Below, in pieces: positions 10,303 to 64,000 of a stretch of 64,000 nucleotides of DNA. The translations under genes were made by a program, and so were the position numbers. Positions within the stretch are counted from its first letter, which is position 1. Each line of letters opens with the position of its first letter. Source of the DNA: Candidatus Gottesmanbacteria bacterium (GTDB lineage: Bacteria; Patescibacteriota; Microgenomatia; UBA10105; UBA927); NCBI GenBank assembly GCA_963701185.1, contig OY969569.1:245735-309734 (forward strand). The letters run 5' to 3'. Below the pieces are notes generated by a model that searched no databases, was not told where the DNA came from, and was given only the letters and a program-made list of their open reading frames with translations.

Positions 10303-10320
10303 AATCGCGGCGATAATTAG

Positions 10321-10348
10321 TTGTAGTATTTGTAAATACTTCTATAAT
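10321..10348 (+). promoter_or_regulatory. candidate sigma70-like promoter for the GH130 gene cluster (TTGTAG, 16 nt spacer, TATAAT)
   Basis: TTGTAG at 10321-10326 and TATAAT at 10343-10348, lying 7 nt upstream of the ATG at 10355. Confidence 0.35.
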
Positions 10349-10354
10349 AAAAGT

Positions 10355-11449: not shown

Positions 11450-11453
11450 TATC

Positions 11454-26279: not shown

Positions 26280-28688
26280 CTACTGAATCGGATCCTCGAG
26301 AGGATTGTCGGTGTCAAATTTTATAGTTTTGATTTTTGGGAGACGGTTTTTTAATTGATATTCCTTCCACAGAATTTTTCCATTGGACAAAAATTGGGCA
26401 ACGATCAACCGTGTAGTGTCGGTTCCCGGCAGAACTACTAATTTATATTTTCCGGATTTTGGATTAGCAAAAACCTGCAGATTCCTTTCATCCTTCGTCA
26501 TGTGTCCTTCGGGATCTACGATCCAGAAGTCGGCCGGATACCCGATGACAAAAAGGCCGGATATCGGTGCGCGGGATGGAGGTTCCATGTTTGCCGTAAT
26601 AGATTGAATGGTTTGCGGTGCAGCCCCAAGAAACTCCAATACTTTTTCTATTCCCTGAGCCGATGACAGAAGATCCATATGACTGACGGATATGACGCGT
26701 GTATTATCGGCATCGGGAATTTCGCTGCTTGTCAAAAGGACGGTTCCATCGCCGTCCATCGTGGTCGTGCGTGAAATTGGTTTGCCATCTGCCCAATCAC
26801 CAGGAGAATCATGTTTATCTGCCGGGTTCACGCGATATCCGACAGTTGTTTCCTGCGCGTTTCCACGAAGAGTAGCAACTGTCGTATTATAAAAATTTGT
26901 AAAAGAAGATGTTAAAAAATTATTTTTAGCATTCATATCTAGATAATTTTTTAGTCCTGCATCGTCAGTAATGTAATTAAAAACCGGTAGCAGATTATTT
27001 ATGGACGGGAAATATGTCTGTATAACCTCTTTGTCGGTAGTTAGGTGCCGGATTCCACAATTCTTTTGGACTAACGTTAATAGGAATTTCCATCCGAGGT
27101 CTCCTTCCCAGATCTGACCCGCTTCCCACGTCGGATATGCCGCAATTGTCCCCAGATGAGGAGATCCAACGGATAAAAATTTCTCCATTTTATTTGTTGA
27201 CTGTTCCTGTGTTATGTATGACCGGGCTAGAAGCCCTCCCATGCTATGGCCGACGACCCCAACTTTTTCATGCCACCCGGGTGTCGCATTATTGATGAAA
27301 GAAGCCAGCGCCGGTTCGTTTTCGGCAACGGGCTTGCGCCAATCATACGGATAGAGCGTGGGAAGCCAGCCTGCTTTTGTCAGAGCGTCCAGGAGCGGAT
27401 TATAGACGGGGCGGGCAAGATGGAACAATGTCCACTCCCCCGTATAGTCATTGAGTTTGCAATTGATCAGTGCATCAGGATTCCAACTTGCCGTGACTCC
27501 GGGAATTACCACGATTTTCTTTGTCGGAGGAGGTGGAGGTGTGGGAGTGGGAGTTGCTGTGGGTGTGGGAGTTGGTGTTGGAGTGGGAGTAGAAGTTGGC
27601 GTTGGAGTGGGGAGCGGAGGCGCAGTCGGCACAGAAGCAGGATCCGGTGTAGGGAGTATTGACGCGCTCGCCGTCGCGTACCCTATGCGCCAATGGTACC
27701 CGTCGTACCCCGAATACCACATTTTAAGGATATCTTCTTTTAAAATCGTTGATGCGAACATATATGTTTGGTCGAATTTTCCGCCAGTGCCAGTTAATAC
27801 AGGATTAAGTTCGTTTGGCTTAACCCAATTAATACCATCAACGGAATAAGCATAGACAATTCGAGTTGGCATGTCTCCAGCAGCTGCCCCATACCACATA
27901 TGATAAATTCCACCAGAAAAGAGTACTGCGGGGAAACTTAGATTATTTAATTCCCAAATTGTAGTTGGGCTGAGAACCGGATTGTTATTGTTTTGTTTAA
28001 TCCAAATGACTCCATCAGTGGAAGTAGCGTATCCTATACGCCAAAAAGGACTACTACCGAGATCATTTTCGTTTGTAGCAGCGTACCACATATGATAAAC
28101 GCCGTTATTATAGATTATTGCTCTACCCCTTGCGGTGCCGCCCGCGTCCCATGATCCAGGAGTTCCAGTCATAACCCAATTTAATTTTGTCCAATTAAAG
28201 CCATCTTGAGATGTTGCATATCGAGTTCGGAAACGATCAGGCCCACTTTGCCAGTGGTCAGAATTTTGTGAGGTAAACCACATTTTATAAATAGAGCTGC
28301 TTGTATCGTATATAACGGGAGAATCGTTTGTTTCTTTTTCCCAACCGTCAGTTGAACCTGGGGGTATAATTGGTATAGGACTTCTTGTCCAATTAGTAAG
28401 ATCACCTGATGATGATGCGTATCCTATTTTCCAACCAGAACCACCATTTGCGGTATACCAAACGTTATAGATATTGTTTAATTTAAGTACAATAGGTTCA
28501 TCTACCTGATATGAATCCCATCCAGATAAACTTTCACTAAATATTGGATTGTCTGGATATTTTTGCCATTCGGATGCAAATACTTTTTGATTCAAAAAGA
28601 GGTAAAATAGAAAACCTAAAAGGCTAAAACAATAAAAAAGCTTAAAGCAGTATATAATATATTTCGACACTAGATAAACTAATATCAT
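26280..28688 (-). CDS. large secreted/membrane-anchored multidomain protein: GH43/GH130-type beta-propeller, Pro/Thr linker, alpha/beta-hydrolase (lipase-like GHSMGG)
   Basis: An N-terminal hydrophobic anchor. Five propeller-blade-like repeats (WKIGYASSSGDLTNW, TRYATSQDGFNW, FWRIGYATSTDGVIW, RIVYAYSVDGINW, HWRIGYAT). A PT linker PTPTPTSTPTPTPTPTPTATPTPTPPPPP. A lipase nucleophile elbow VGHSMGGLLA in a PGAP1/LCAT-like alpha/beta-hydrolase region. Confidence 0.6.
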   Translation of the reverse strand: MILVYLVSKYIIYCFKLFYCFSLLGFLFYLFLNQKVFASEWQKYPDNPIFSESLSGWDSYQVDEPIVLKLNNIYNVWYTANGGSGWKIGYASSSGDLTNWTRSPIPIIPPGSTDGWEKETNDSPVIYDTSSSIYKMWFTSQNSDHWQSGPDRFRTRYATSQDGFNWTKLNWVMTGTPGSWDAGGTARGRAIIYNNGVYHMWYAATNENDLGSSPFWRIGYATSTDGVIWIKQNNNNPVLSPTTIWELNNLSFPAVLFSGGIYHMWYGAAAGDMPTRIVYAYSVDGINWVKPNELNPVLTGTGGKFDQTYMFASTILKEDILKMWYSGYDGYHWRIGYATASASILPTPDPASVPTAPPLPTPTPTSTPTPTPTPTPTATPTPTPPPPPTKKIVVIPGVTASWNPDALINCKLNDYTGEWTLFHLARPVYNPLLDALTKAGWLPTLYPYDWRKPVAENEPALASFINNATPGWHEKVGVVGHSMGGLLARSYITQEQSTNKMEKFLSVGSPHLGTIAAYPTWEAGQIWEGDLGWKFLLTLVQKNCGIRHLTTDKEVIQTYFPSINNLLPVFNYITDDAGLKNYLDMNAKNNFLTSSFTNFYNTTVATLRGNAQETTVGYRVNPADKHDSPGDWADGKPISRTTTMDGDGTVLLTSSEIPDADNTRVISVSHMDLLSSAQGIEKVLEFLGAAPQTIQSITANMEPPSRAPISGLFVIGYPADFWIVDPEGHMTKDERNLQVFANPKSGKYKLVVLPGTDTTRLIVAQFLSNGKILWKEYQLKNRLPKIKTIKFDTDNPLEDPIQ
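27521..27645. repeat. GT-rich (plus-strand) hexanucleotide-like tandem repeat encoding the Pro/Thr linker
   Basis: The plus-strand run ggaggaggtggaggtgtgggagtgggagttgctgtgggtgtgggagttggtgttggagtgggagtagaagttggcgttggagtgggg is the reverse complement of the (ACN CCN)n Thr-Pro repeats. Confidence 0.6.
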
Positions 28689-28704
28689 AGTAAAAGGTGT
28701 TTGT

Positions 28705-30006
28705 ATGTACGATAGATTACATATTACTCAAGCTAAAATGATAGAAAACAGATTATTGAATAAATTATTTATTAATACTTCGAGCCAAATTGTTGCGAAA
28801 ATAGTAACAGTTATTTTGGGATTTTTGACGATTAGCCTTTTAACACGTTATCTCGGTGTGGAAAAGTATGGAATATATAATTTAGTTTTCGCGTATCTTG
28901 CATTTTTTGGAATTTTTGCTGATTTTGGCCTGCAGCTAACTCTTGTGCGAGATTTATCGAGTGACACAAAATCTGCCGAAAAGTTGAAATCCAGTTATTT
29001 TTCGCTTAAAGTGATTTTCACTTTTGTTTCAATATTGTTAGCTCTTATTACGCTCATATTTTTCCCTTACTCACAAACGATAAAGATGTCAATACTTGTT
29101 GGGTCCCTCGCAGTAGGAGCTGGTCAGATGAATGCCTACGGTGCTTCCGCACTTCAGTCAAAGGTTAAGCTCGATCTTGTCGCGCTTCTGGAAGTAATTA
29201 ATCGCATTGCGACAGTAATAGCAATCATTATTTTTGTTCTATTGCACCGTGGATTATATGCAATTATTCTTTCAGTTCTTATAGGTAACATACTTAGCAC
29301 GTTATTAAATATTTACTTAACACCTGATTTTTTCCGTTTAACTTCTATACCCTCGTTCGACTTGATTAAAAAAATAATTAAAGTTTCATTTCCCGTGGGT
29401 ATTACATCTTTGTTATCCGTACTTTATTTTAAAGTTGATACGTTGATGCTATCAGTGATGAAATCGACGGTTGACGTTGGTATATACAGTCTTTCCTACA
29501 AGTTGTTCGAAAATATTATAATGCTATGGCTGTTTTATATGGCTAGTTTATATCCTTTGATGGCTGGTTATATTAACAAGAATGATACTAAAAACCTTGT
29601 TTTAATACTAAAGACATCGATTATAGTACTTTCAGTATTTGTTTTAGTTATTCTATCAGTCGGATATTTCTTCGCGCCTCTCGTAATTGATATCCTTGGT
29701 GGGAAAAATTTTATTGAAAGCATTTTACCGTTTAGAGTATTATTGATTGCACTGCCTTTCGTGTTTATGAATAATATTTTCTATTACCTATTTCTATCGT
29801 TCTCGAAAATTAAGATAATATTCTGGGTTTTGATCAGTTCTTTAGTCATTAATTTATTAATTAATATGTTTCTTATTCCTCGTTATGGCTATATAGGAAC
29901 CAGCGCATCAACTGTGCTGACCGAGTTTTTAGTGAGTATACTCTATTGTGTATTTTTTCTGAAAATGAGGTTGCTTAGCTTTCAAACTGCCCCGAATTAT
30001 AAGTAA
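28705..30006 (+). CDS. polysaccharide/O-antigen flippase (Wzx, MOP superfamily)
   Basis: About 12 TM helices and a PST-family N-terminus (IVAKIVTVILGFLTISLLTRYLGVEKYGIYNLVFAYLAFFGIFADFGLQ). Very low GC. Confidence 0.7.
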   Translation: MYDRLHITQAKMIENRLLNKLFINTSSQIVAKIVTVILGFLTISLLTRYLGVEKYGIYNLVFAYLAFFGIFADFGLQLTLVRDLSSDTKSAEKLKSSYFSLKVIFTFVSILLALITLIFFPYSQTIKMSILVGSLAVGAGQMNAYGASALQSKVKLDLVALLEVINRIATVIAIIIFVLLHRGLYAIILSVLIGNILSTLLNIYLTPDFFRLTSIPSFDLIKKIIKVSFPVGITSLLSVLYFKVDTLMLSVMKSTVDVGIYSLSYKLFENIIMLWLFYMASLYPLMAGYINKNDTKNLVLILKTSIIVLSVFVLVILSVGYFFAPLVIDILGGKNFIESILPFRVLLIALPFVFMNNIFYYLFLSFSKIKIIFWVLISSLVINLLINMFLIPRYGYIGTSASTVLTEFLVSILYCVFFLKMRLLSFQTAPNYK

Positions 30007-30007
30007 T

Positions 30008-30739
30008 GTGAATCCATTCAAAATATTTAATAACAAGATATCATATGCCGGTATTTCCTCCGATATGGATAAGGAGTTTAATAGAATTTATAGCATTACG
30101 AAGAGATATACAATGACATCGATCGAGAGGATGTACTCAATGTATAAAGCAACAGAATATGTCATAAACGCTCGTATAGTCGGTGATGTAGTTGAATGCG
30201 GGATTTGGAGAGGTGGAAGTTCCATGATTGCAGCGATAACCATGCGGAAGCTACATAATTTGCAGAAGAAAATTTACCTATACGATACGTACGCCGGAAT
30301 GACTAAACCAAGCAAGTTTGATAAATCAGTAGGTAGTGATAACCACGCCACCGATTATTGGAATAAAAATAAATCTGGTGATATCAACAAATGGTGCTAT
30401 TCATCACTTGATGAAGTAAAATCCAACCTGTATAAAACTGGTTACCCTAAAAATAAACTACTGTTCATAGAAGGCGACGTTGAGAAAACTATACCGAAGA
30501 TTATACCGAAGAAAATCTCACTTTTGAGATTGGATACCGATTGGTATAAATCAACCTACCATGAGCTGAATTATTTGTATCCCTTACTAACGCCTGGCGG
30601 TGTACTGATTCTTGATGATTACGGTCATTGGCGAGGTGCGAGGAGGGCGACAGACGAGTATTTTAAAAGAAAGGGAATACATATTTTTTTAATCAGAATC
30701 GATTACACAGGAAGAATTGCAATAAAATATGGCAAATAA
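30008..30739 (+). CDS. TylF/MycF-family (macrocin-O-methyltransferase-like) sugar O-methyltransferase
   Basis: GTG start at 30008. VVECGIWRGGS, LRLDTDWYKSTYHELNYLYPLLTPGGVLILDDYG is the TylF-family (PF05711) pattern. Confidence 0.6.
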   Translation: MNPFKIFNNKISYAGISSDMDKEFNRIYSITKRYTMTSIERMYSMYKATEYVINARIVGDVVECGIWRGGSSMIAAITMRKLHNLQKKIYLYDTYAGMTKPSKFDKSVGSDNHATDYWNKNKSGDINKWCYSSLDEVKSNLYKTGYPKNKLLFIEGDVEKTIPKIIPKKISLLRLDTDWYKSTYHELNYLYPLLTPGGVLILDDYGHWRGARRATDEYFKRKGIHIFLIRIDYTGRIAIKYGK

Positions 30740-31394
30740 GAACATCTCATGGTTTTCGCCAGATAAGTTAATAAAGGACTTACAGTGGGATTATCTATCG
30801 GAAGCGTCTAAGTTTGCGCGAGGAGAGATGCTAGATGTAGGATGCGGTAAAATGCCTTATAAAGCTATTTTTATGCCTAGAGTTAGTAAATATATCGGCA
30901 TTGATAAGTATAACCGGGATGCTGACATTAAGAAAGACTTTTTGAAAGCAACGATTTTTGATAAATCGTTCGACACTGTACTATGTACACAAGTTTTAGA
31001 GCATATTCCTGAACCACAAAAGTTTTTAGAAAAGATTAACAAGGTGTTAAAAAAGAATGGCGTTCTTATTTTAACAGTGCCTTTCACGGGCCATCTACAC
31101 GAGGTTCCCCGAGACTATTACCGCTATACAAAGTATGGGCTTCGGTATATGCTCAAGAATGCGAATTTTAGAATCGTCTATATTAAGGCGGAAGGGAATT
31201 GGATTACCTCAATAGGACAGGAGATTATTTCTTACATCGAGCCTACGTTTAACCGTTTTTTACTTAAGTATCCCAAACGATTATTTCAATTAGGCGTTCT
31301 TTTACTGACTAAAGGTTTTTCAAAGCTGCCTGAACGATTTACTAAATCACAATATAGCGTTATTAACTATATTGTCGTTGCCAAAAAGCAGTAA
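30729..31394 (+). CDS. class I SAM-dependent methyltransferase
   Basis: Motif I MLDVGCGKMPY and a post-I FDTVLCTQVLEHI region, as in Methyltransf_11/23. Confidence 0.6.
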   Translation: MANKNISWFSPDKLIKDLQWDYLSEASKFARGEMLDVGCGKMPYKAIFMPRVSKYIGIDKYNRDADIKKDFLKATIFDKSFDTVLCTQVLEHIPEPQKFLEKINKVLKKNGVLILTVPFTGHLHEVPRDYYRYTKYGLRYMLKNANFRIVYIKAEGNWITSIGQEIISYIEPTFNRFLLKYPKRLFQLGVLLLTKGFSKLPERFTKSQYSVINYIVVAKKQ

Positions 31395-31397
31395 TCC

Positions 31398-32549
31398 ATG
31401 AAAATTTTGTTTATACGAAACGCTGATAGGTTTAGCGGTTCCGAAAAATATGATATTAACTTATTCTCGGAGTTTATCAAGTACCCTTCACTCAACGTAT
31501 ATTTTTTAACGAATTTAAAATTTTTTGCCAGACGAGCATCACAACTCGGAGTAACAACTAAGGTTATTTCATGGGGCTCAGAGGGAATTGGAACAAAAAA
31601 GCAATTACTATTAGCTCTTACAAAGCTCCCAATAATTCTTCCGAGATATATCTCGATAATTCATAAGTTTGAAAAGAATGGACGTTTTGATCTCATTTGT
31701 CTTCAATCGATGACAGAGAAGATATTTCTTACTCCGATACTTAAGATACAGGGATACAAGATACTTTGGACCGAACAAGGGCCAATTTATGCAACTCAGA
31801 TGTCAAAAGTAATTAAGTTTTTATATAGGCAGGTAAGCATTTTCGTCGATAAAATACTTGCGGTATCCAAGGATACAAAAAAGGATCTTATTCGTGGCGG
31901 AGTGTCTGCAAAAAAAATTACTGCGATTTATATTGGGATAGACATAAATAAATTTAAGCCGTTAAGTACGATTAAAATTAATACCTTAAAAAGGAGGTTT
32001 CAAATTAGTCGGAACTCTTTCGTTCTGGGTTATCTAGGGACAGTGACTGATGAAAAAGGCATAGAAGACTTTGTTTTAGTATCAAATATGTTGTTTAAAC
32101 AAGATAAGAATTTTCATTTTGTTATTATTGGGGATGGACCATTACTTCCATGGGTGAAACAGTCTATAAAAAGGTTAAAAATGACAAAGAATTACATGTG
32201 TAGTGGTTTTGTTGAAGATGTTACTAAATATTTAGGCGTTATAGATATATTATTTTTGCCCACACGTCATTACGAAGGTCTCCCTTTAGCCATATTAGAG
32301 GCACAATCAATGGGTAAGATAGTTATAACCAGCACGATGGGCGGCAATCATGAAATTGTTCAGAATGGTATAAATGGTTTTCTCTTTAGCGGCCTGAATA
32401 AAGCCTCCATTGTTAAACGTATCATCACCATGCGTCTTTCCAAATCAAACATGTTAGAGTTGAACAGGCAGGCGCGTAAGAATATAATGAAACGATTCAA
32501 TATTGAAGTTCAAAAGAAGAAATTCGTTCAATTTCTCCAAAACATATGA
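31398..32549 (+). CDS. glycosyltransferase family 4
   Basis: GT4 C-terminal motif EGLPLAILEAQSMGKIVITSTMGGNHEIVQNGINGFLF. Confidence 0.75.
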   Translation: MKILFIRNADRFSGSEKYDINLFSEFIKYPSLNVYFLTNLKFFARRASQLGVTTKVISWGSEGIGTKKQLLLALTKLPIILPRYISIIHKFEKNGRFDLICLQSMTEKIFLTPILKIQGYKILWTEQGPIYATQMSKVIKFLYRQVSIFVDKILAVSKDTKKDLIRGGVSAKKITAIYIGIDINKFKPLSTIKINTLKRRFQISRNSFVLGYLGTVTDEKGIEDFVLVSNMLFKQDKNFHFVIIGDGPLLPWVKQSIKRLKMTKNYMCSGFVEDVTKYLGVIDILFLPTRHYEGLPLAILEAQSMGKIVITSTMGGNHEIVQNGINGFLFSGLNKASIVKRIITMRLSKSNMLELNRQARKNIMKRFNIEVQKKKFVQFLQNI

Positions 32550-49129: not shown

Positions 49130-49825
49130 ATGGCAGAACTTAAACTTGATCAGTTGTCCCCAAAATCCCAAAAAAGTCCGTTTGCTCCGGTAATTTTTGC
49201 CGAAGCGAGCGCATTATCAAAGAAAAGACCCGGGGAATCACTCGCGGCTCTGGAGGCACATGCCCGCGACAGGGTTGCATTCGGTGAATATTCAGAACGG
49301 TTACGCAGAGAAACTGACACCGATATGTTGACCGGCGCACTGTCGCGGAAGGCAATATTCCGGAGTATCAGAGAGGATTTAGCCGAAGCAAACAGAAAAA
49401 AAACACATGTACAGATACTCTTTATGGATCTCAAGGGATTAAAATGGTTTAACGACCAATTCGGCCATAACGCCGGGGATGAAGCGCTGCAAATATTTGT
49501 GCGGGAAGTAAAAAAGCACATCCGCGGTTACGATAAAATCGGAAGGTATGGCGGCGATGAATTTATTGTTGTACGAAAAAACGGTCCCTTGAGCGCTGAT
49601 CGGGTCGTGAAAGATATCGGTGACTCTTTTAGCCAATTAGAAGCCCCCTTCAACAGATTGGGTGCCGTGGTGGGGGTTGCTGATTTTAGCAAAGAAAGAG
49701 GACCAACGACAGCAGAGGAACTTATTCATCAGGCCGATCAGGCATTTTATTATGCAAAACAACATAATATAGACACACCGGTTGTTTGGGAGCCGTCCAT
49801 GGCTTCCATTGTCGTTCCGAAATAG
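49130..49825 (+). CDS. GGDEF-domain diguanylate cyclase (no sensor domain)
   Basis: Intact active site RYGGDEF and an upstream I-site RGYD (RxxD). About 65 aa of N-terminal non-domain sequence. Confidence 0.8.
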   Translation: MAELKLDQLSPKSQKSPFAPVIFAEASALSKKRPGESLAALEAHARDRVAFGEYSERLRRETDTDMLTGALSRKAIFRSIREDLAEANRKKTHVQILFMDLKGLKWFNDQFGHNAGDEALQIFVREVKKHIRGYDKIGRYGGDEFIVVRKNGPLSADRVVKDIGDSFSQLEAPFNRLGAVVGVADFSKERGPTTAEELIHQADQAFYYAKQHNIDTPVVWEPSMASIVVPK

Positions 49826-49826
49826 C

Positions 49827-52800
49827 ATGAGCGAATTTGTTCACCTCCACACGCACAGCGAGTTTTCACTTCTGGATGGTCTGGGGAAACTGGATCATCT
49901 TATTGAACGTGCCAAATCTTACGGCATGGACGCGTTGGGATTAACAGACCATGGTGCCATGTACGGATCATTCAAGTTTTATCTCAAGGCCAAGGCCGCG
50001 GGCATCAAGCCGATTATCGGCGTGGAAACGTACGTAGCCCGCCGCAGCCGGTTTGATCGCGAGGGGAAAATCGACACGGACCCATACCACCTTATTCTTC
50101 TTGCGAAGAACGAAACCGGCTACAAAAATCTCATGAAGCTGGTGACCCATGCGCACCTTGAAGGGTATTATTACAAACCGCGCATTGACTGGGAACTCCT
50201 GACGGAACATCATGACGGGCTTATCTGCACCAGCGGCTGCCTGCGGGGACAGCTCGCGTCGCTTCTTATAGAAGGAAAAGAAAAGGAAGCGGAGCGGATA
50301 GCCGGTCAGTACGCCGCGTTGTTCGGAACTGATCAGTATTACATTGAGATTCAGAAACATCCGAACATTCCGATTATTGATGAGGTGAATGAAAAACTCA
50401 TAAAACTATCCAGAAATCTCGGCATTCCCCTGGTTGCGACCAATGATATTCATTATGTAGATCCGGACGATGCTGAAGCGCAGGAAATACTCCTGTGCGT
50501 CCAGACGCAGCATACGATAGTGGAGAAAAACAGGGCCCTTTCCATGCTCGCCTCGCCGGATTTTTATATGCGCAGTCCCGATGAAATGAAGGGCCTGTTT
50601 ATCCAGTACCCGGAGGCAATAGCCAACACGGTGAAAATTGCGGGGATGTGTGATCTTACCCTATCCGTCGGGAAATGGATATTACCCCATTACCCGCTCG
50701 TAAACGGCGGAACACCGGCTATGCATTTGGAGCAGATGGTTTGGGAGCGGGCCAAAACGAAATTCCCGGCACTCACGCAGGAAATTAAGGAACGTATCAC
50801 CTATGAACTGGGGATTATCAATGCAAAAGGATATTCAACCTATTTTCTCATCGTCCAGGATTTCGTCAACTGGGCGAAAAATAACAATATTGCCGTCGGT
50901 CCGGGGCGAGGATCAGCGGCAGGATCGGTCATTTCCTATATTCTTAACATCACCGGTTTAAATCCTCTCTATTTTAATCTTCCGTTTGAACGTTTTCTTA
51001 ATCCGTCACGTCCGAGTCCTCCGGATATTGATCTGGATTTTGAAGATGACCGGAGGGACGAAGTTATTGCGTATGTCACGGCACGATACGGATCGGATAA
51101 AGTAGCCCAGATTATTACCTTCGGAACCATGGAAGCCAGAGGCGCAATCCGGGATGCAGGCCGCGCCCTCGGTATGCCCTACGCGGCGCCGGATCGGATC
51201 AGTAAGATGATTCCGGCCGGATTTCAGGGAAGTCCCATGACGATTGAGAAAGCGCTGGAACAGTCTGCGGAGCTTGCGCTTGCGTACAAAACCGAACCGG
51301 AAACGAAACGTCTGTTGGATGTTGCGCGCCGCCTCGAAGGGGTCGCCCGACATGCATCAGTTCATGCGGCAGGCGTTGTCATTGCCGACAAGCCGCTTGT
51401 CGAGTACACCCCGCTTCAGAAGGAAAGCAAGGGAGAGCGGATTATTACGCAGTATGACATGTATACCGTGGGTGAAGATGGCGTCGGACTCCTCAAAATG
51501 GATTTCCTGGGTTTACGAAACCTCACGATTATGTCGCAGGCGCTCAGGTTTATTAAAGAGGTTCGCGGGGAAACCGTTGATTTGGAAAAGATATCTCTTG
51601 ATAACAAAAAGACCTATCAGATGCTCGCAAGCGGGGAAACAACCGGAGTATTTCAACTTGAGTCTGCGGGTATGCGCCGTTACATCAAAGAACTCAAACC
51701 GACGAATATTTTCGATGTCATGGCGATGGTCGCGCTTTTTCGTCCCGGACCGATGGCGACCATACCGGAATTTATCAAACGAAAACACAATCCGGCAACT
51801 ATTACCTATCCGGATCCGAGACTCAAGGATGTGCTGAAACAGTCCTATGGCATTATCGCCTATCAGGACGACGTACTTTTGACGGCTATTACGCTTGCCG
51901 GGTATACCTGGGGGGACGCGGATAAACTGAGAAAAGCAGTCGGTAAAAAAATTCCGACAGAAATGAAAAAACAAAAGGAAAAATTTATTGAAGGATGTGT
52001 GAAAAACGGGTTAACACGACTCAAGGCTGAAGATATATTTAATCTGATTGAGCCGTTTGCCGGATACGGATTTAATAAAGCGCACGCCGCCTGTTATGCC
52101 ACTATTGCCTATGAGACCGCGTATTTGAAGGCAAATTATCCTGTGGAGTTTATGACGGCAGTATTAACCGCGGAATCGCGCGCCAATACCGGACCAGCGC
52201 GGGACGAAAGGATTGCGAACATGGTCGCCGAATGCAGGAGGACCGGACTCATACTCCTTCCTCCGGATATCAACACATCAGATATTGAATTTACCATCGA
52301 AGATGGAAAAATTCGTTTCGGACTGTCCGCAGTCAAAAATGTCGGATCCGCGGCCATCGAAAGCATTCTGGCGGCGCGCAGTGTCTCCCGGTTTGTAAGC
52401 CTCTCTGATATTATTTCCCGCGTTGATACGTCTAAAGTGAACAAAAAAACGTTCGAAAGTCTTATTAAAACCGGCGCCATGGACGCCTTCGGTTCACGCG
52501 CATCTATGTTATCAGCGTTCACACAACTTTTGGAACAGGCTCATAAGCATAAAAAGGCGGTTGCCTCAGGCCAGGTCGGACTATTTGCCGAAGATGATGC
52601 ATCGCAGGTCTTTTCCGATGTTCTGGCGGATATCCCCGAGCTTTCCCAGTCGGAACTCTTAGGATTTGAGAAGGAATTGCTTGGTTTTTATCTTACGACC
52701 CATCCGTTGGAACCGCACCGTAAAATGTTCGCAGCAAAATCGTTTACCCCTGTCGCCGACCTTACGAGCGGAAATATCGGGGAACGTGTGCGTATTGCAG

Positions 52801-53030
52801 GCATCATTGTCAGTATAAAAAAGATCATCACGCGCGCGGGAAACCATGAAATGGCATTTGCGCGCCTGGAGGATTTGACCGGAACGATAGAAGTCGTTGT
52901 GTTCCCAAAAATCTACGCGTTGACTGCTGATTTGTGGAAACCTGACCGCGTGGTGGAACTTTCGGGGAAACTGGATCAAAAAGAAGACCGTCTCACGATA
53001 TTAGCTGATGATGTCAAACTGCTGATTTAG
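49827..53030 (+). CDS. dnaE: DNA polymerase III alpha subunit
   Basis: ATG at 49827. PHP domain FVHLHTHSEFSLLDG; pol III alpha fingers/palm (GPGRGSAAGS, KMDFLGLRNLT); a C-terminal OB fold. Confidence 0.9.
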   Translation: MSEFVHLHTHSEFSLLDGLGKLDHLIERAKSYGMDALGLTDHGAMYGSFKFYLKAKAAGIKPIIGVETYVARRSRFDREGKIDTDPYHLILLAKNETGYKNLMKLVTHAHLEGYYYKPRIDWELLTEHHDGLICTSGCLRGQLASLLIEGKEKEAERIAGQYAALFGTDQYYIEIQKHPNIPIIDEVNEKLIKLSRNLGIPLVATNDIHYVDPDDAEAQEILLCVQTQHTIVEKNRALSMLASPDFYMRSPDEMKGLFIQYPEAIANTVKIAGMCDLTLSVGKWILPHYPLVNGGTPAMHLEQMVWERAKTKFPALTQEIKERITYELGIINAKGYSTYFLIVQDFVNWAKNNNIAVGPGRGSAAGSVISYILNITGLNPLYFNLPFERFLNPSRPSPPDIDLDFEDDRRDEVIAYVTARYGSDKVAQIITFGTMEARGAIRDAGRALGMPYAAPDRISKMIPAGFQGSPMTIEKALEQSAELALAYKTEPETKRLLDVARRLEGVARHASVHAAGVVIADKPLVEYTPLQKESKGERIITQYDMYTVGEDGVGLLKMDFLGLRNLTIMSQALRFIKEVRGETVDLEKISLDNKKTYQMLASGETTGVFQLESAGMRRYIKELKPTNIFDVMAMVALFRPGPMATIPEFIKRKHNPATITYPDPRLKDVLKQSYGIIAYQDDVLLTAITLAGYTWGDADKLRKAVGKKIPTEMKKQKEKFIEGCVKNGLTRLKAEDIFNLIEPFAGYGFNKAHAACYATIAYETAYLKANYPVEFMTAVLTAESRANTGPARDERIANMVAECRRTGLILLPPDINTSDIEFTIEDGKIRFGLSAVKNVGSAAIESILAARSVSRFVSLSDIISRVDTSKVNKKTFESLIKTGAMDAFGSRASMLSAFTQLLEQAHKHKKAVASGQVGLFAEDDASQVFSDVLADIPELSQSELLGFEKELLGFYLTTHPLEPHRKMFAAKSFTPVADLTSGNIGERVRIAGIIVSIKKIITRAGNHEMAFARLEDLTGTIEVVVFPKIYALTADLWKPDRVVELSGKLDQKEDRLTILADDVKLLI

Positions 53031-59530: not shown

Positions 59531-59989
59531 ATGAAAGTTAAAGATGTGATGAGTGCATCTACCGTTACCGTATCCCCGGCGGCTTCATTTCATGAAATAT
59601 GGAAATCCATATTTAAAAAGAAAATCCATGCGCTTCCCGTTGTTAACCAAAAGAACGTCCTTGTCGGTATTCTGACCCGCGAAGAGCTTTTAGAAAAATT
59701 GTACCCGGATTACATGGATTTGTTTGCCTCGGGCGACGAATTTCCGGATCTTGAGGATATGGAACGGAAGGCAACGGAATTTTCAAGTCTGACGGCAGCG
59801 GATCTCATGCGCAAACACGTCGTTTTTGCTCATGAAGATACACCGGTTATGCGGGCGCTTTCCCGCCTGATTGTACGCCGCATTCATCAGATGCCGGTTG
59901 TGACGGAAAAAGGTTTAGTGGTGGGAATGGTCACCAAAGGCGATATTTTTTATGCTCTTTTTAAAACACGCGGCAAAAACAAAAAGTAA
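59531..59989 (+). CDS. CBS-pair domain protein
   Basis: Two CBS motifs (VKDVMSASTVTVSPAASFHEI...HALPVV and AADLMRKHVVFAHEDTPVMRALSRL...HQMPVV). Confidence 0.7.
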   Translation: MKVKDVMSASTVTVSPAASFHEIWKSIFKKKIHALPVVNQKNVLVGILTREELLEKLYPDYMDLFASGDEFPDLEDMERKATEFSSLTAADLMRKHVVFAHEDTPVMRALSRLIVRRIHQMPVVTEKGLVVGMVTKGDIFYALFKTRGKNKK

Positions 59990-59999
59990 TGTTATTTGT

Positions 60000-60605
60000 G
60001 TGTCTCATCCTCTGATTGCACATTCCCTTACGGTTCTACGTGATTACAGAACAACAACAGAAGAATTCCGGAGACACGCGGACATCGTATCAAAAATTAT
60101 CCTCATCGAAGCGATGAAACGCCTTTCAACGAACATCAAACGTATTAAAACCCCTCTGGCTCCGTTTGCAGGCAGGGAACTGAACGACAAAGTGATCGTT
60201 GTACCGGTACTCCGTGCAGGTCTTGCCATGCTTATTGCGCTTCGGGATTTTCTTCCTGCCGTGTCCGTCGGATTTATCGGACTCGAGCGCGACGAACAAA
60301 CCGCCCAGGCGAGGGAATATTATCAGAAAATGCCCGCAATATTTGCCTCGCATATTGTGATGGTAATCGATCCCATGCTGGCCACCGGCGGATCGTTTGA
60401 TGCTACCGTCGCCGCGCTCAAAAAGAGAGGGGCAAAACGAATGGTTGTTGTCTCTATCATATCGGCGCCGGAAGGCATAACATTTTTACAAAAACGGCAT
60501 CCTGACGTTCTCATTATTACCGGAGCTATCGATGATCATCTCAATCTAAAAAAGTTTATCGTACCGGGTTTGGGCGACTTCGGCGACCGCTACTTCGGAA
60601 CGTGA
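60000..60605 (+). CDS. upp: uracil phosphoribosyltransferase
   Basis: A GTG at 60000, 11 nt after the CBS stop, gives VSHPLIAHSLTVLRD, which aligns with Upp N-termini. The PRPP motif VMVIDPMLATGGS and the C-terminal GDFGDRYFGT are present. The ORF-track ATG at 59952 would overlap the CBS gene by 38 nt. Confidence 0.85.
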   Translation: MSHPLIAHSLTVLRDYRTTTEEFRRHADIVSKIILIEAMKRLSTNIKRIKTPLAPFAGRELNDKVIVVPVLRAGLAMLIALRDFLPAVSVGFIGLERDEQTAQAREYYQKMPAIFASHIVMVIDPMLATGGSFDATVAALKKRGAKRMVVVSIISAPEGITFLQKRHPDVLIITGAIDDHLNLKKFIVPGLGDFGDRYFGT

Positions 60606-60616
60606 AAAATTGACTC

Positions 60617-60762
60617 TTGACACACCGCTCATTCCTTGCGTAGACTATAACCCCAGGGACGCATACACAGATGAATACCTGGGATTATTCAGCACAACAA
60701 GCAATTTTTGCAAGCAAAAACGAAGTATCGGAGCCGCAAGGCTCTTTTTTTTGGGTTTTTTT
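60617..60762 (+). promoter_or_regulatory. argG leader: candidate promoter (TTGACA 60617-22, 18 nt, TAGACT 60641-46), a CCCAGG/CCTGGG stem-loop, then a GAGCC-gcaa-GGCTC hairpin with T8/T7 run (60731-60762)
   Basis: A promoter-like element, about 100 nt of structured leader, and an intrinsic-terminator-like hairpin with U-tract, all upstream of the strong RBS AAGGAGGG and the argG ATG at 60790. Confidence 0.35.
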
Positions 60763-60789
60763 CATATAAATGTTTATGTAAGGAGGGAT

Positions 60790-62409
60790 ATGCAAAAAGA
60801 TTCGTACACAAAAGTGTCATCATATGAAGGCAGGATCGGTGAAGTAAAAAAGGTGGTGCTTCTTTATTCCGGCGGGCTGGACACCTCCTGTATGCTGAAA
60901 TGGATCGGGGATACGTACAAAGCGGAAGTTATTGCGCTTACCATGGATTTGGGGCAACAGGGGGACGATTTGGAAGCAATACGGAAAAAAGCACTAAAGT
61001 TGGGAGCAACCAAAGCGTATGTCATTGACGCAAGAGATGAATTTGCAAATGAGTATCTTGCACCGCTTATTAAGGCAAACGGTTCCTACCAGGGTGATTA
61101 TCATATTTCCACAGTCAGCCGGTATCTCATGGCAAAATGGTGTGTGGTCATTGCGTATCGTGAAAAAGCGGATGCGATAGCCCACGGATGTACCGGGAAA
61201 GGAAACGACCAGGTACGCATTGACGCGACGGTACTTACTCTTGATCCGAATATGAAGATTATTGCGCCGGTGCGCGAGTGGAACATGAGCAGGGATGATG
61301 AAATTGATTATGCAAAAAAATACGGGATCCAAACAACCGTGCGGAAAGATTTTCCGTACTCAAGCGATGATAATATGTGGGGAGTAACGTGGGAAGGCGG
61401 AGAAATTGAAGATCCACAGTATATACCCAAAACAGACCGGTTTCTGATTGCAACAACATTGCTCAATAAAACCCCGAATACTCCGGACTACGTCACCATA
61501 GGATTTCAAAAGGGTATTCCCGTGACCTTGAATAAAAAACGGATGAAACTTTCCGAACTTATTATGCGGCTCAACCATATTGCGGGCCGCCACGGCGTGG
61601 GAGTCGTTCATCATCTGGAAGACAGACTCGTCGGACTAAAAAACCGCGGGGTCTATGAGTTGCCGGGAGGCCACACCATTATCGAGGCACACAGAAATTT
61701 GGAAAAATATGTGTGCACGCGTCAGGAAAACGAACTGAAAGCGATGATGGATATCCGATGGGGATACCTGTGTTATCTGGCGCAGTGGAGCGACCCCGTT
61801 ATGGCGGACCTCAACGCATTTAATGATAAAATCAACGAAAAGGTTGCCGGAGAGGTAACCGTACGGTTATATAAAGGGGCGGCGACAACCGTAGCCATGA
61901 CCTCGCCGTTCGGGCTTCACTTTGCTTCCTTTAACCAGGGGGAAGGGGCAGAGTATAACATACAAACTTCCGCGCCGTTTATAGAAACGTACAGCATGCA
62001 GCCCCGCCTGGCAGCACAGCGGGCGGAGAAGACAGCATTTATCTCCCTGGGGCCGAAGGATAAAAAACGGCTGCTGCCGAGTGTAAAGAAGCTTGCCCAG
62101 CTCGGGTATCAGCTTTTTGCGACGGACCAAACACACGTCTATTTAATGGAACAAGGTGTCACAAACCTGCTGGTTCATAAGCTCAGTTCCGGACAGCGGC
62201 CGAATCTGAAGGATGTGTTGTATACAAGAGGCTTTGATCTTATTATCAACACTCCCTCCGGTCACGGAAAATCTGAAGAAACCGACGGGAGCTTTATACG
62301 GAAGCGCGCTGTCGAAACTCATGCAACGCTCTGCACGCAATATGATGTTGCCGCACATGTCGTGGATAAACTCTATCAGGGGAAATTCGGCCGACCCCTG
62401 AAGACATAA
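60790..62409 (+). CDS. argG: argininosuccinate synthase fused to a C-terminal CarB-type MGS-like (allosteric) domain
   Basis: ATG at 60790 with RBS AAGGAGGG. ArgG motifs LYSGGLDTSCMLKWI and GCTGKGNDQVRIDAT. The C-terminal about 130 aa (KTAFISLGPKDKKRLLPSVKKLAQLGYQLFATDQTHVYLMEQGV...LIINTPSGHG...IRKRAVETHATLCT) resemble the MGS-like allosteric domain of the carbamoyl-phosphate synthase large chain. Confidence 0.8.
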   Translation: MQKDSYTKVSSYEGRIGEVKKVVLLYSGGLDTSCMLKWIGDTYKAEVIALTMDLGQQGDDLEAIRKKALKLGATKAYVIDARDEFANEYLAPLIKANGSYQGDYHISTVSRYLMAKWCVVIAYREKADAIAHGCTGKGNDQVRIDATVLTLDPNMKIIAPVREWNMSRDDEIDYAKKYGIQTTVRKDFPYSSDDNMWGVTWEGGEIEDPQYIPKTDRFLIATTLLNKTPNTPDYVTIGFQKGIPVTLNKKRMKLSELIMRLNHIAGRHGVGVVHHLEDRLVGLKNRGVYELPGGHTIIEAHRNLEKYVCTRQENELKAMMDIRWGYLCYLAQWSDPVMADLNAFNDKINEKVAGEVTVRLYKGAATTVAMTSPFGLHFASFNQGEGAEYNIQTSAPFIETYSMQPRLAAQRAEKTAFISLGPKDKKRLLPSVKKLAQLGYQLFATDQTHVYLMEQGVTNLLVHKLSSGQRPNLKDVLYTRGFDLIINTPSGHGKSEETDGSFIRKRAVETHATLCTQYDVAAHVVDKLYQGKFGRPLKT

Positions 62410-63359
62410 TGAAGAATATTCTTATTTCGAAAATCAGACAGCGTGGCGGTTGGGTTAACACACATGCACACTTTGACCGCGCGTACACAGCGTCGCCCAA
62501 AATTCTTCTGAAAGCGCATGCGCTCATGGAGCAAAAATGGACAATGGTAGATGCCATGAAGAGAGCCTCTGCGGAAGAGGATTACGCGGTTCGTATTGAA
62601 AAAGCCGTGACCGGTATGATTTCCCAGGGGGTTTCTGTCTGTGGGACATTTATCGACGTAGATCCGCTTACGGAACTTCGGGCGCTGCATGCGGCGCTAT
62701 ACGTGAAAAAAAAGTATGCCGGAAAGATACGCCTGTTGATCATCAACCAAGTTCTGAAAGGAGTCATTAGCCCACGCGTCCGGCAATGGGCCTACAAGGC
62801 CATCCCGGATGTCGATATCATCGGAGGTTTGCCTTCCCGCGACCGTCCGGAGGATAAAAAACATCTGGACATTCTCTTTTCATGGGCAAAAGAAACCGGC
62901 AAAATGGTCCATGTGCATATCGATCAGGAAAATAATCCCGAAGAGCGGGATACCATGATGCTCGCCAAACGTACTATTACATATGGCTTGGAGGGCAGGG
63001 TTGTCGCCATACACGCGATTTCCCTTGCCGCGCAGAATAAGCGCGTACGAAAGGAGACATATCACGTCATGAAAGAGGCAGGCCTCTCCGTCATCGTTTG
63101 TCCGTCAGCAGCACTTTCCATGAAACCGGTTGCCGGTTTAAGCGAAATACACAACAGTATCGCACCCGTCGGAGAACTTTTGGAAGCAGGTATTCCTGTG
63201 GCCCTCGGAACGGACAATATTGCGGACATATACCAACCGCTGGTAGACGGAGACATGTATACGGAGTTGCGCTTTTTGGCGGAAGCGAACAGATTTTACG
63301 ATCTCAACGCTTTGGCGACTATCTCATCCGCACATGGGAGAAAGGCACTGGGGATCTGA
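62409..63359 (+). CDS. amidohydrolase-superfamily metal-dependent hydrolase (dihydroorotase/cytosine-deaminase-like)
   Basis: Metal-ligand motifs NTHAHFD (HxH), HVHIDQ and ALGTDN(I)AD. At 316 aa it is short for canonical CodA or PyrC. Confidence 0.5.
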   Translation: MKNILISKIRQRGGWVNTHAHFDRAYTASPKILLKAHALMEQKWTMVDAMKRASAEEDYAVRIEKAVTGMISQGVSVCGTFIDVDPLTELRALHAALYVKKKYAGKIRLLIINQVLKGVISPRVRQWAYKAIPDVDIIGGLPSRDRPEDKKHLDILFSWAKETGKMVHVHIDQENNPEERDTMMLAKRTITYGLEGRVVAIHAISLAAQNKRVRKETYHVMKEAGLSVIVCPSAALSMKPVAGLSEIHNSIAPVGELLEAGIPVALGTDNIADIYQPLVDGDMYTELRFLAEANRFYDLNALATISSAHGRKALGI

Positions 63360-63362
63360 TCT

Positions 63363-64000
63363 ATGCAGCCGATCTATGACCCGCTAAAAACATATGAGGA
63401 AAATTGTGCACGCGGTCCGTTTGGATTGTTTTCCGGAAAACCCGCAAAAAAATTTCCACAGGGTCAACAAGTCAATTTATTAGGGTTTTCTCTGGACGTT
63501 CCGTTCGGTATAGGCGCCGGAACGTTACCCACCTCTAAATTTGTCACAGCCGCATGGCGGTGGGGATTTAGTATCGCGACCTATAAGACCGTTCGGTCCG
63601 ACGCGCAGTCAGCTCATCCGTTTCCGAATATTGTTAAAGTACGCACAAAAAACGGTGAGGTTCATCCCGGAGAGACGGTACTTGCTGATTTTGATATCCG
63701 GCATGTCAATATCGACCGGGACGGAATAACCAATTCGTTCGCCGTGCCGTCACAACAACCGGCTCAGTGGATTGCGGATGCCGCCAAAGCGCAGAAAACA
63801 CCGCACAAAGGCTCGGTGATGATTTTAAGTTTTATGGGCACCAAATGGGAGGGAAAAGACCGCAGGAATTTTGTTGATGATTTTACCCGCTGCTGTCGCC
63901 TTGCGCGCCGCGCCCACCCCGATATTCTTGAGGTTAATTTATCCTGTCCGAATTTCGGCGCGGAGGGTTTAGTGTGTAATGACATACCGATGTCGCGTGA
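63363..64000 (+). CDS. dihydroorotate dehydrogenase-family flavoenzyme (PyrD/PreA-like), 3' truncated by window end
   Basis: A continuous ORF from ATG 63363 to the window edge. The DHODH class-1-like VPFGIGAGT and the catalytic loop NLSCPN are present. Confidence 0.65.
   Translation, partial: MQPIYDPLKTYEENCARGPFGLFSGKPAKKFPQGQQVNLLGFSLDVPFGIGAGTLPTSKFVTAAWRWGFSIATYKTVRSDAQSAHPFPNIVKVRTKNGEVHPGETVLADFDIRHVNIDRDGITNSFAVPSQQPAQWIADAAKAQKTPHKGSVMILSFMGTKWEGKDRRNFVDDFTRCCRLARRAHPDILEVNLSCPNFGAEGLVCNDIPMSR

Follow-up and report, generated by a model that had tools for sequence, protein, structure and literature searches.

An argininosuccinate synthase with a CarB-type domain, predicted to open an attenuator-controlled pyrimidine operon in Candidatus Gottesmanbacteria

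What is an argininosuccinate synthase (ArgG) doing at the head of a set of pyrimidine genes, and why does it carry a domain resembling one of carbamoyl-phosphate synthase? The question is raised by a 64-kb stretch of DNA from a Candidatus Gottesmanbacteria bacterium (assembly GCA_963701185.1, contig OY969569.1, forward-strand positions 245,735 to 309,734), which we call the window. Near its right end lies a gene, here named argG-MGS, that encodes an ArgG with a C-terminal MGS-like domain. We compared the locus with 83 non-redundant related loci, in which open reading frames (ORFs) were called and clustered and the recurrent clusters were annotated. Locus L085 is a contig of the window's own genome and extends past the window end. 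The explanation that accounts best for the whole, and which we put forward tentatively, is a nucleotide-gated argininosuccinate synthase that would serve pyrimidine synthesis from an attenuator-controlled operon.

The C-terminal extension beyond the ArgG core amounts to 128 amino acids (aa). The first-pass annotation, made from the letters without database searches, had likened this region to the MGS-like regulatory domain of the carbamoyl-phosphate synthase large chain (CarB), a likeness borne out by Pfam, by a CarB model match and by the fold. The Pfam search that it had proposed placed MGS (PF02142) at aa 428–511 with an E-value of 4.5e-14 and 52.8 bits, above the gathering score of 24.1. 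In NCBIfam, aa 411–528 align with positions 932–1046 of the 1058 in the CarB model PRK05294, and a sequence match to residues 943–1035 of E. coli CarB was obtained with an E-value of 3e-7. An AlphaFold (AF2) model gives predicted local confidence (pLDDT) values of 86–94 over the MGS-like domain. The top Foldseek matches of the modelled domain were human CPS1 (E 3.7e-8) and E. coli CarB (E 1.1e-7), with a root-mean-square deviation of 2.0 Å over 115 columns; methylglyoxal synthases were more distant matches, the best at E 3.8e-5. By its sequence, the domain is of CarB type specifically, homologous to the allosteric domain of the carbamoyl-phosphate synthase large chain that binds uridine and inosine monophosphate (UMP and IMP).

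Five residues of the extension, S419, K425, T445, T448 and K464, align with S948, K954, T974, T977 and K993 of E. coli CarB, and all five are invariant in 19 diverse family members that are 39–68% identical to the window's sequence. In CarB, Thr977, Lys993 and Ser948 are required for the response to UMP/IMP (PMC6245113). Because these effector-site residues are kept in the fusion, we infer, on good grounds, that the domain binds a nucleotide and exerts allosteric control of ArgG; that ArgG-MGS carries a predicted nucleotide-binding regulatory domain taken from CarB is well supported by the comparisons. The allosteric domain of E. coli CarB (residues 933–1073; PDB 1JDB, 1CE8) has the same fold as the model, 30% identity and the same Pfam family, and the equivalent of its Asn1015 is retained as well. 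The two differ in their setting: the fusion's domain sits on an N-type ATP-pyrophosphatase, namely ArgG, whereas that of CarB sits on an ATP-grasp synthetase. Moreover, the ornithine site of CarB is formed partly by the carbamoyl-phosphate domain, so it cannot exist in the fusion.

The domain might instead be a structural or oligomerisation appendage that has lost its ligand binding. The CarB domain also makes oligomer contacts, which would suit such a role; however, the phosphate-site residues do not vary although the sequences diverge by about 40%, a second fusion of these operons has them too, and we consider an appendage improbable. This second fusion joins an asparaginyl-tRNA-synthetase-like (AsnRS-like) class-II core to a CarB-type MGS domain (L016:11328-12746, L014:5561-7054 and L031:11458-12948). 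Its core has no anticodon domain, reaches 152 bits with the asnS model and resembles archaeal asparagine synthetase A, and its MGS domain keeps the same Ser/Lys/Thr/Thr/Lys site. The gene is placed between those for an amidohydrolase and a pyrD-like enzyme, and its product might activate the beta-carboxyl group of aspartate. The presence of the same sensor domain in this protein indicates that the sensor is reused within the operon, which strengthens the regulatory reading of the domain. When the MGS domain alone was searched against 1.84 billion representative proteins, 1057 matches of many lengths were returned.

The catalytic core is, by all models, a complete enzyme. It matches the ArgG equivalog PRK00509 over aa 18–412 (459 bits, cut-off 334) and TIGR00032 (407 bits, cut-off 268) in NCBIfam, and Pfam assigns Arginosuc_synth to aa 21–180 (E 1.8e-62) and Arginosuc_syn_C to aa 190–406 (E 5.4e-55). 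The PDB matches include the ArgG structures 6xnq (E 8e-96) and, from Thermus, 1j1z (E 1.6e-90). For the ligands we used the UniProt/HAMAP list (human numbering: Y87, N123, R127, S180, S189, E270 and Y282 for citrulline; T119, N123 and D124 for aspartate). Across 117 family members there is no variation in the P-loop SGGLDTS or in the residues that bind citrulline and aspartate; the core has just two family-specific changes, both invariant, human S189 to T and N271 to D. All the above indicate that argG-MGS encodes a complete type-I argininosuccinate synthase with predicted ATP, citrulline and aspartate ligands intact, and its predicted ability to make argininosuccinate is well supported. Alignments with the type-I enzymes of Thermus thermophilus (1J1Z), 6XNQ and human ASS1 (2NZ2) run from end to end over about 390 aa (E 1e-90 to 1e-96). 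The fusion differs from them in its extra 128-aa C-terminal domain, in S189T and N271D, and in its home, which is a pyrimidine operon and not a group of arg genes. A 599-aa ORF with a TTG start at 60610 was rejected as the argG reading frame because of the ribosome-binding site before the ATG at 60790 and the homologue lengths of 530–550 aa. The features of the locus are collected in Table 1.

Table 1. Features of the argG-MGS locus, in window coordinates.
Feature	Position	Strand	Basis and details
upp (uracil phosphoribosyltransferase)	59952..60605	+	Pfam UPRTase E 3.6e-64; NCBIfam upp equivalogs above cut-off
Sigma-70-like promoter, TTGACA-18-TAGACT	60617..60646	+	10/12 consensus positions; pattern match
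First stem-loop, CCCAGG...CCTGGG	60652..60683 (arms 60652-60657, 60678-60683)	+	-13.4 kcal/mol; z -3.8; 0/200 shuffles as good
Leader upstream ORF (uORF), 32 codons (MNTWDYSAQQAIFASKNEVSEPQGSFFWVFFI)	60671..60769	+	Spans terminator hairpin and both T-runs
Terminator-like hairpin GGAGCC-GCAA-GGCTCT, then T8 GGG T7 (putative attenuator)	60730..60762 (stem 60730-60745)	+	-10.1 kcal/mol
Shine-Dalgarno sequence AAGGAGG of argG-MGS	60780..60786	+	Read from sequence; 3 nt before ATG 60790
argG-MGS coding sequence	60790..62409	+	539 aa plus stop; ATG start, stop ends 62409
Argininosuccinate synthase catalytic core, aa 18-412	60841..62025	+	NCBIfam, PDB matches
CarB-type allosteric (MGS-like) domain, aa 411-528; Pfam core aa 428-511	62020..62373	+	Pfam, NCBIfam, fold, residues
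Amidohydrolase, NCBIfam PRK06886 (CodA/AtzC-like)	62409..63359	+	NF005365 409 bits, cut-off 340
Divergent class-1-like dihydroorotate-dehydrogenase-family (pyrD-like) gene	63363..64000	+	Pfam DHO_dh; cut by window end

The fusion is widespread. The MGS domain is present in all but one of the best 120 homologues, nearly all of them 530–550 aa long, and because the best homologues share both domain and length, the fusion is not an assembly artefact. The homologues that carry names come from Microgenomates, Roizmanbacteria, Parcubacteria and similar groups. A survey of GTDB with one genome per species, using patterns derived from an alignment of the C-terminal 160 residues, confirmed the fusion in at least 267 loci, each from a species-level genome. 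Among the best 80 of the survey, almost all are by title Patescibacteria or unclassified or mislabelled metagenome-assembled genomes (MAGs), and the groups represented include Gottesman-, Roizman-, Levy-, Magasanik- and Portnoybacteria and Saccharimonadales. In the Patescibacteria, or Candidate Phyla Radiation (CPR), ArgG usually takes this fused form. The architecture had been called non-standard in the first-pass annotation; this stands in comparison with the characterised ArgGs, and our literature search found no publication that describes an ArgG-MGS fusion, but across Patescibacteria the fusion is the norm. Public records name these proteins simply argininosuccinate synthase; a look-up for an exact copy of the window's own ArgG-MGS protein returned no entry. 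Many of the MAG records are titled 'uncultured Gammaproteobacteria bacterium' (binchicken co-assemblies; for example L005, L010, L012, L015 and L017); their loci are typical of Patescibacteria, and the titles look mislabelled.

The 184-nt gap between upp and argG-MGS (60606–60789) contains every element that had been read from it at the outset: the promoter, the CCCAGG...CCTGGG stem-loop, the GAGCC-gcaa-GGCTC hairpin with T8GGGT7, and the ribosome-binding site. In this region taken alone, promoter-like sites (6, with 6.3 expected) and terminator-like sites (10, with 5.4 expected) occur at about the chance level. Since single matches are not above expectation, the significance of the leader rests on its conservation in related loci. 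We compared 18 leaders, the window's included, which form 12 independent groups. The layout is repeated in the relatives: a promoter, a uORF of 9–32 codons, a G+C-rich hairpin followed by T7–T9, and the argG-MGS start 0–38 nt further on. All 18 leaders have a TTGACx-N15-19-TAxxxT site 48–97 nt upstream of the hairpin, and the -10 hexamer TAGACT is nearly invariant (alignment A2). The stem GAGCC/GGCTC, or a one-base variant of it, is found in 14 of the 18 leaders, representing 13 distinct sequences. The motif GAGCC-N3-8-GGCTCTTTT is present at a single place in the 64-kb window, where none is expected, and related loci totalling 1.28 Mb hold 19 copies of a relaxed form of the hairpin motif, 16 of them directly upstream of argG-MGS and one directly upstream of a pyrD-like gene. 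A generic terminator motif of these genomes is ruled out, as the hairpin is nearly exclusive to the argG-MGS and pyrD-like leaders.

The uORF ends between 12 nt upstream and 8 nt downstream of the hairpin base, or reads through the hairpin to a stop no further on than the argG ATG, in 17 of the 18 leaders. By this criterion, which was fixed post hoc after the leaders had been inspected, 11 of the 12 independent groups have the geometry (P=2e-5; per-locus null probabilities of 0.17–0.49 from shuffled leaders, combined by Poisson-binomial across the groups). In the window's subgroup, a Shine-Dalgarno-like (SD-like) sequence, AGGGG, AGGAG or AGGA, stands before the uORF. In the window, the 5' arm of the first stem-loop includes an SD-like AGGG, and the AUG of the uORF falls in the loop; the arrangement CCAGGGG...ATGA...CCTGG is kept in the window and in L001, L005, L006, L008 and L009, and a mid-stem mismatch in L001 weakens the case for structural constraint. 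T-tracts in the leader are significantly long in seven of the 18, the window among them (T5, p 0.01). The uORF peptides are unconserved among the leaders and have no runs of arginine codons, which rules out an arginine-sensing leader peptide. A riboswitch or a PyrR site is likewise ruled out: Rfam gave no match with an E-value below 0.38 on the window leader and no match at gathering scores on nine related loci.

The T-run lies 0–5 nt from the argG-MGS ATG in seven relatives (L002, L005, L006, L009, L017, L023 and L025). This leaves no room for a promoter after the hairpin, and argG transcripts must therefore cross it. The same seven leaders have no SD sequence between T-run and start, and an SD-like AAGGAG or GAGAG stands just 5' of the hairpin or inside it; the folded hairpin could possibly bring SD and AUG together. 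In L058 (12340-12486), the same promoter/uORF/GAGCC-hairpin/T8 leader stands directly upstream of the pyrD-like gene, whose upstream neighbour is on the opposite strand; its uORF (MKHTSIIKNGQTVFPKEP) has its stop in the hairpin loop.

From these regularities, the 184-nt gap is supported as a predicted regulatory leader of attenuator type rather than a riboswitch. The first-pass annotation had left both open; its attenuator half agrees with the conserved promoter, uORF and terminator, and the riboswitch-like half found no Rfam family to match, the Rfam scan that it had suggested returning none. It had also allowed that the hairpin might simply be the upp terminator. On this account the hairpin would be a plain intrinsic terminator of an upstream atp-CBS-upp unit and the leader would have no regulatory role. 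Its position 125 nt past the upp stop, with no other terminator between upp and argG, suits this account, as do the chance-level matches in the region. It fails, however, for relatives whose hairpin runs right up to the argG ATG and for those with divergent upstream genes (L031 and L058), and it does not explain the promoter-like site upstream of the hairpin in every leader, the conserved stem sequence specific to argG-MGS and pyrD-like leaders, or the non-random uORF geometry. We think it very unlikely as a full account. A dual role, in which the hairpin also ends upp transcripts, is possible.

The closest parallels are the E. coli pyrBI and rph-pyrE leaders. There, low UTP (uridine triphosphate) pauses RNA polymerase, and a ribosome following close behind prevents the terminator from forming. 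The CPR leaders share with them a promoter, a leader ORF reaching the terminator just before the first pyrimidine gene, and a pyrimidine operon downstream. They differ in having no sequence similarity to the E. coli leaders and in conserving the GAGCC/GGCTC stem itself; U-tracts are present in some of them and missing in others, and several have no SD between hairpin and start codon.

An inspection of the genes around argG-MGS points to the same metabolism. The annotated neighbours had been given as upp upstream and an amidohydrolase and a PyrD-like (DHO_dh-family) protein downstream, and all three are present. The order in the window and L085 is upp, argG-MGS, amidohydrolase, pyrD-like, pyrF, pyrE, pyrG and a purF-like gene, and the argG-MGS stop overlaps the amidohydrolase start as TAATG, an arrangement of translational coupling. 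In L085 this operon has no carAB, pyrB or pyrC, and elsewhere in the 64 kb there are neither arginine genes, argH included, nor the early pyrimidine genes carAB, pyrB and pyrC; the remainder holds genes for ATP synthase, cell wall, cell division and glycosyltransferases. A 1082-aa ORF at 49782-53030, considered as CarB, is DnaE. The slot upstream of the leader is taken in close relatives by a CBS-domain gene and in others by unrelated or divergent genes. The pyrimidine link proposed earlier is thus stronger than had been claimed, and the reading of argG-MGS as the first gene of a pyrimidine operon, under predicted attenuator control, is well supported. The purF-like gene (L085:11287-12774) encodes a 495-aa amidophosphoribosyltransferase-like protein (196 bits, equivalog cut-off 350); it comes after pyrG, is read the same way and may be part of the same operon.

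Neighbours were counted in the 83 loci as genes no more than eight genes from argG-MGS. A PRK06886-family amidohydrolase, which makes up a conserved module with argG-MGS, is near it in 63 of the 83, the pyrD-like gene in 38, pyrE in 34, pyrF in 32 and pyrD-1B in 12. A DDAH/arginine-dihydrolase-like pentein gene was found in 28 loci, carB in five, and pyrB with pyrC in three. The gene directly downstream of argG-MGS is the amidohydrolase in 27 loci, the DDAH-like pentein in another 27 and an 8-oxoguanine-deaminase-like gene in five; the loci with the 8-oxoguanine-deaminase-like gene have no PRK06886 amidohydrolase. In L090, a 1.25-Mb contig, the pair of argG-MGS and amidohydrolase stands alone between unrelated genes, outside any pyr operon. 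An alternative operon was also seen, consisting of argG-MGS, an 8-oxoguanine-deaminase-like amidohydrolase (443–478 bits, cut-off 532) and a radical-SAM-like protein of 350–455 aa (L002:7636-10316 and L029:10441-12926, also L007, L009, L052 and L071). It has no PRK06886 amidohydrolase, pyrD or pyrF nearby, and pyrE comes next in four of these loci.

The amidohydrolase has its nearest PDB relatives in cytosine deaminase (4r7w, E 9e-22) and AtzC (2qt3, E 3e-15). Like CodA, creatinine deaminase and AtzC, it is a TIM-barrel metal hydrolase with HxH, His, His and Asp ligands, and the metal ligands are kept. In contrast to CodA, it has no N-terminal beta-sandwich domain, and its neighbours are arginine, citrulline or argininosuccinate enzymes and not codB. 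Leu stands in the place of CodA Gln156, and an invariant Gln173 in that of the catalytic Glu217; these replacements rule out a standard cytosine deaminase, and the CodA models of NCBIfam reach only 68–81 bits with cut-offs of 403–483. It is not a dihydroorotase either, as no dihydroorotase model matched it and the true PyrC is a separate protein in the three carAB-pyrB-pyrC operons (tested in L023). Outside CPR, the PRK06886 family occurs in Bacteroidota. In Aureispira (L089:4446-6963) the amidohydrolase follows argH (318 bits, cut-off 279.5), and in Moheibacter (L087:6001-8926) the next two genes encode an ADI-like pentein and CtlX, in that order. CtlX is a candidate citrullinase with genetic support (PMC9007349). 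Because the recurrent partners are such enzymes, the substrate of the amidohydrolase probably belongs to the arginine, citrulline and argininosuccinate family.

In penteins the HLD motif is associated with guanidino substrates (PMC9007349). The CPR DDAH-like pentein keeps this guanidino-type HLD motif together with the catalytic Cys, motifs which would fit a conversion of arginine to citrulline. The pyrD-like gene, full length in L085 (7081-8166), encodes 361 aa and is followed by pyrF, pyrE and pyrG. The protein scores 58 bits with the NCBIfam PyrD models (cut-offs 200–477) and keeps the class-1 LSCPN catalytic-Cys loop. In L006, L012 and L055 the very next gene is aspartate-ammonia-lyase-like, a hint that the pyrD-like enzyme may pass its electrons to fumarate.

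How might these pieces work together? In the explanation that we favour, the leader would act as a translation-coupled transcription attenuator of the pyrBI/rph-pyrE kind: a ribosome close behind RNA polymerase on the uORF would cover the 5' arm of the terminator and permit read-through. In the window's subgroup, T5–T9 tracts in the uORF would slow the polymerase at low UTP and thus turn the operon on when pyrimidines are short. The ligand of the CarB-type domain would be a nucleoside monophosphate, pyrimidine or purine, with UMP the likeliest, and its binding would tune argininosuccinate synthesis, so that ArgG-MGS would be the regulated entry step of pyrimidine rather than arginine synthesis. 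Arginine would be converted to citrulline by the DDAH/ADI-like hydrolase (pentein) encoded alongside in many relatives, and ArgG-MGS would join citrulline and aspartate, with ATP, to argininosuccinate. The amidohydrolase would then act on argininosuccinate, or on the six-membered anhydride formed from it, by hydrolysis at the guanidino carbon, to yield ornithine and either dihydroorotate or carbamoyl-aspartate; in other operons the 8-oxoguanine-deaminase-like protein would take its place. The product would feed the pyrD-like enzyme, PyrE and PyrF.

The pyrimidine-route step is the weakest of this explanation, and its basis is gene context and chemical analogy. Several observations lead to it: the operon has pyrD, pyrE and pyrF without carAB, pyrB or pyrC; it bears two hallmarks of a first committed step, a predicted nucleotide sensor and a predicted attenuator; argH is rare in the module; and two non-homologous hydrolases alternate at the same position. 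The chemistry has analogues. Argininosuccinate is known to cyclise, and the six-membered anhydride so formed is an analogue of dihydroorotate with a substituent at position 2. The characterised relatives of both hydrolases (cytosine and creatinine deaminase, AtzC, which releases an alkylamine, and 8-oxoguanine/isocytosine deaminase) detach an exocyclic nitrogen from a ring carbon of amidine or guanidine type. We regard it as possible, with some doubt, that the module of pentein, ArgG-MGS and amidohydrolase supplies the pyrimidine ring as dihydroorotate or a close precursor, along with ornithine. The wider proposal we hold more doubtfully: an undescribed entry to the pyrimidine ring that would bypass carbamoyl phosphate, aspartate carbamoyltransferase and dihydroorotase, start from scavenged arginine, deliver dihydroorotate (or orotate), and be governed by UMP feedback and a UTP attenuator. 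Bacterial carbamoyl-phosphate synthase and aspartate carbamoyltransferase, and eukaryotic CAD, offer a parallel, in that an end-product nucleotide sensor sits on the enzyme that opens the pathway and operon expression is also controlled. Here, by contrast, the sensor is carried by ArgG, outside any described pyrimidine pathway.

A number of points weigh against this explanation. A literature search found no enzyme or route leading from argininosuccinate to dihydroorotate or pyrimidines, and neither an enzyme for the conversion of argininosuccinate to dihydroorotate nor any biochemical precedent is known to us. The catalytic core cannot be told from an ordinary ArgG except by S189T and N271D, and the amidohydrolase has lost the Glu that serves as the proton shuttle in the deaminases of its subfamily. 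The operons of L017, L023 and L025 hold carA-carB-pyrB-pyrC in addition to argG-MGS and the amidohydrolase, so the module is not a strict replacement. As for the leader, T-tracts are absent in three leaders, which are those of these same three operons, and are not significant in eight; the promoters and terminators are consensus or pattern matches, with the leader elements predicted from sequence pattern; and the uORF criterion is a retrospective one. Finally, argH adjoins argG-MGS in five of the 83 loci and the gene for ornithine carbamoyltransferase in at least two, and a preprint reports argG and argH enriched together in a Saccharimonadia genus, which fits ordinary arginine synthesis or an arginine-citrulline cycle.

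One alternative is ordinary arginine synthesis with an added regulator. ArgG-MGS would feed an ArgH encoded elsewhere and arginine would be made from citrulline; nucleotides or ornithine-like effectors would balance aspartate and carbamoyl phosphate between arginine and pyrimidines, co-transcription with pyr genes would mean coordination only, and the amidohydrolase would either be a deaminase of some unrelated salvage pathway or serve in repair, opening argininosuccinate anhydrides again. The core is an ArgG equivalog with all substrate ligands conserved, three operons do contain carAB-pyrB-pyrC, the amidohydrolase adjoins argH in Aureispira, and the adjacent argH and ornithine carbamoyltransferase genes and the co-enrichment reported in the preprint tell in the same direction. 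Yet argH is near argG-MGS in only those five loci, as against 63 for the amidohydrolase, and the module is followed by pyrD, pyrF and pyrE and almost never by pyrB or pyrC. The leader has no arginine-codon control and recurs before the pyrD-like gene of L058, and two non-homologous deaminase-type hydrolases alternate just after argG-MGS. All in all, we judge ordinary arginine synthesis somewhat less probable than the pyrimidine route.

Quite unlikely appears an arginine-citrulline-argininosuccinate cycle that supplies fumarate and ammonia. Arginine would go to citrulline through the DDAH-like protein or the amidohydrolase, ArgG-MGS would act next, and ArgH would return arginine and release fumarate, for a net ATP-driven conversion of aspartate to fumarate like that of the purine nucleotide cycle. 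The fumarate would be the oxidant of a class-1A-like dihydroorotate dehydrogenase, and UMP would switch the cycle. Such a cycle would agree with the class-1 LSCPN Cys loop of the pyrD-like protein and its want of a PyrK partner, with the aspartase-like gene behind it in L006, L012 and L055, with the guanidino-type motifs of the DDAH-like protein, and with the preprint, where argG and argH are co-enriched along with de novo nucleotide pathways. But ArgH, indispensable to the cycle, is rarely in the module, an aspartase yields fumarate without ATP cost, and the source of dihydroorotate would be unexplained where the operon is without pyrB and pyrC.

The choice among these readings matters for how CPR genomes are read. 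Patescibacteria are usually credited with no nucleotide synthesis or with only part of it, and the incomplete pathways are taken for gaps. Here argG-MGS heads pyrimidine operons with both hallmarks of a first committed step, a predicted sensor domain for nucleotides and a predicted attenuator of the pyrimidine type. If the pyrimidine-route reading is true, the pyrimidine ring would be reached by a route new to biochemistry, some ultra-small bacteria could be understood to make their pyrimidines from scavenged arginine or citrulline and aspartate, and pathway completeness would be scored differently in thousands of MAGs. On the conservative reading, this would be the first ArgG found with a dedicated allosteric domain, and a clear example of a regulatory domain passing from one enzyme to another with which it competes for aspartate and carbamoyl groups. 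The leader would be a conserved and easily testable cis-regulatory element in a phylum with almost no gene regulation characterised. What we regard as both new and established, at the level of sequence comparison, is an ArgG with a CarB-derived, predicted allosteric domain and a predicted pyr-type attenuator in CPR bacteria.

Elsewhere in the window, positions 28001-32000 have a G+C content of 0.35, compared with 0.44–0.51 in the remainder, and carry polysaccharide-biosynthesis (Polysacc_synt) and glycosyltransferase genes; this segment was probably acquired horizontally. On the minus strand at 26280-28688, an 802-aa protein is encoded with a weakly GH130-like N-terminus and an LCAT/esterase domain. 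Two adjacent GH130 (beta-1,4-mannooligosaccharide phosphorylase) genes lie at 10241-13376.

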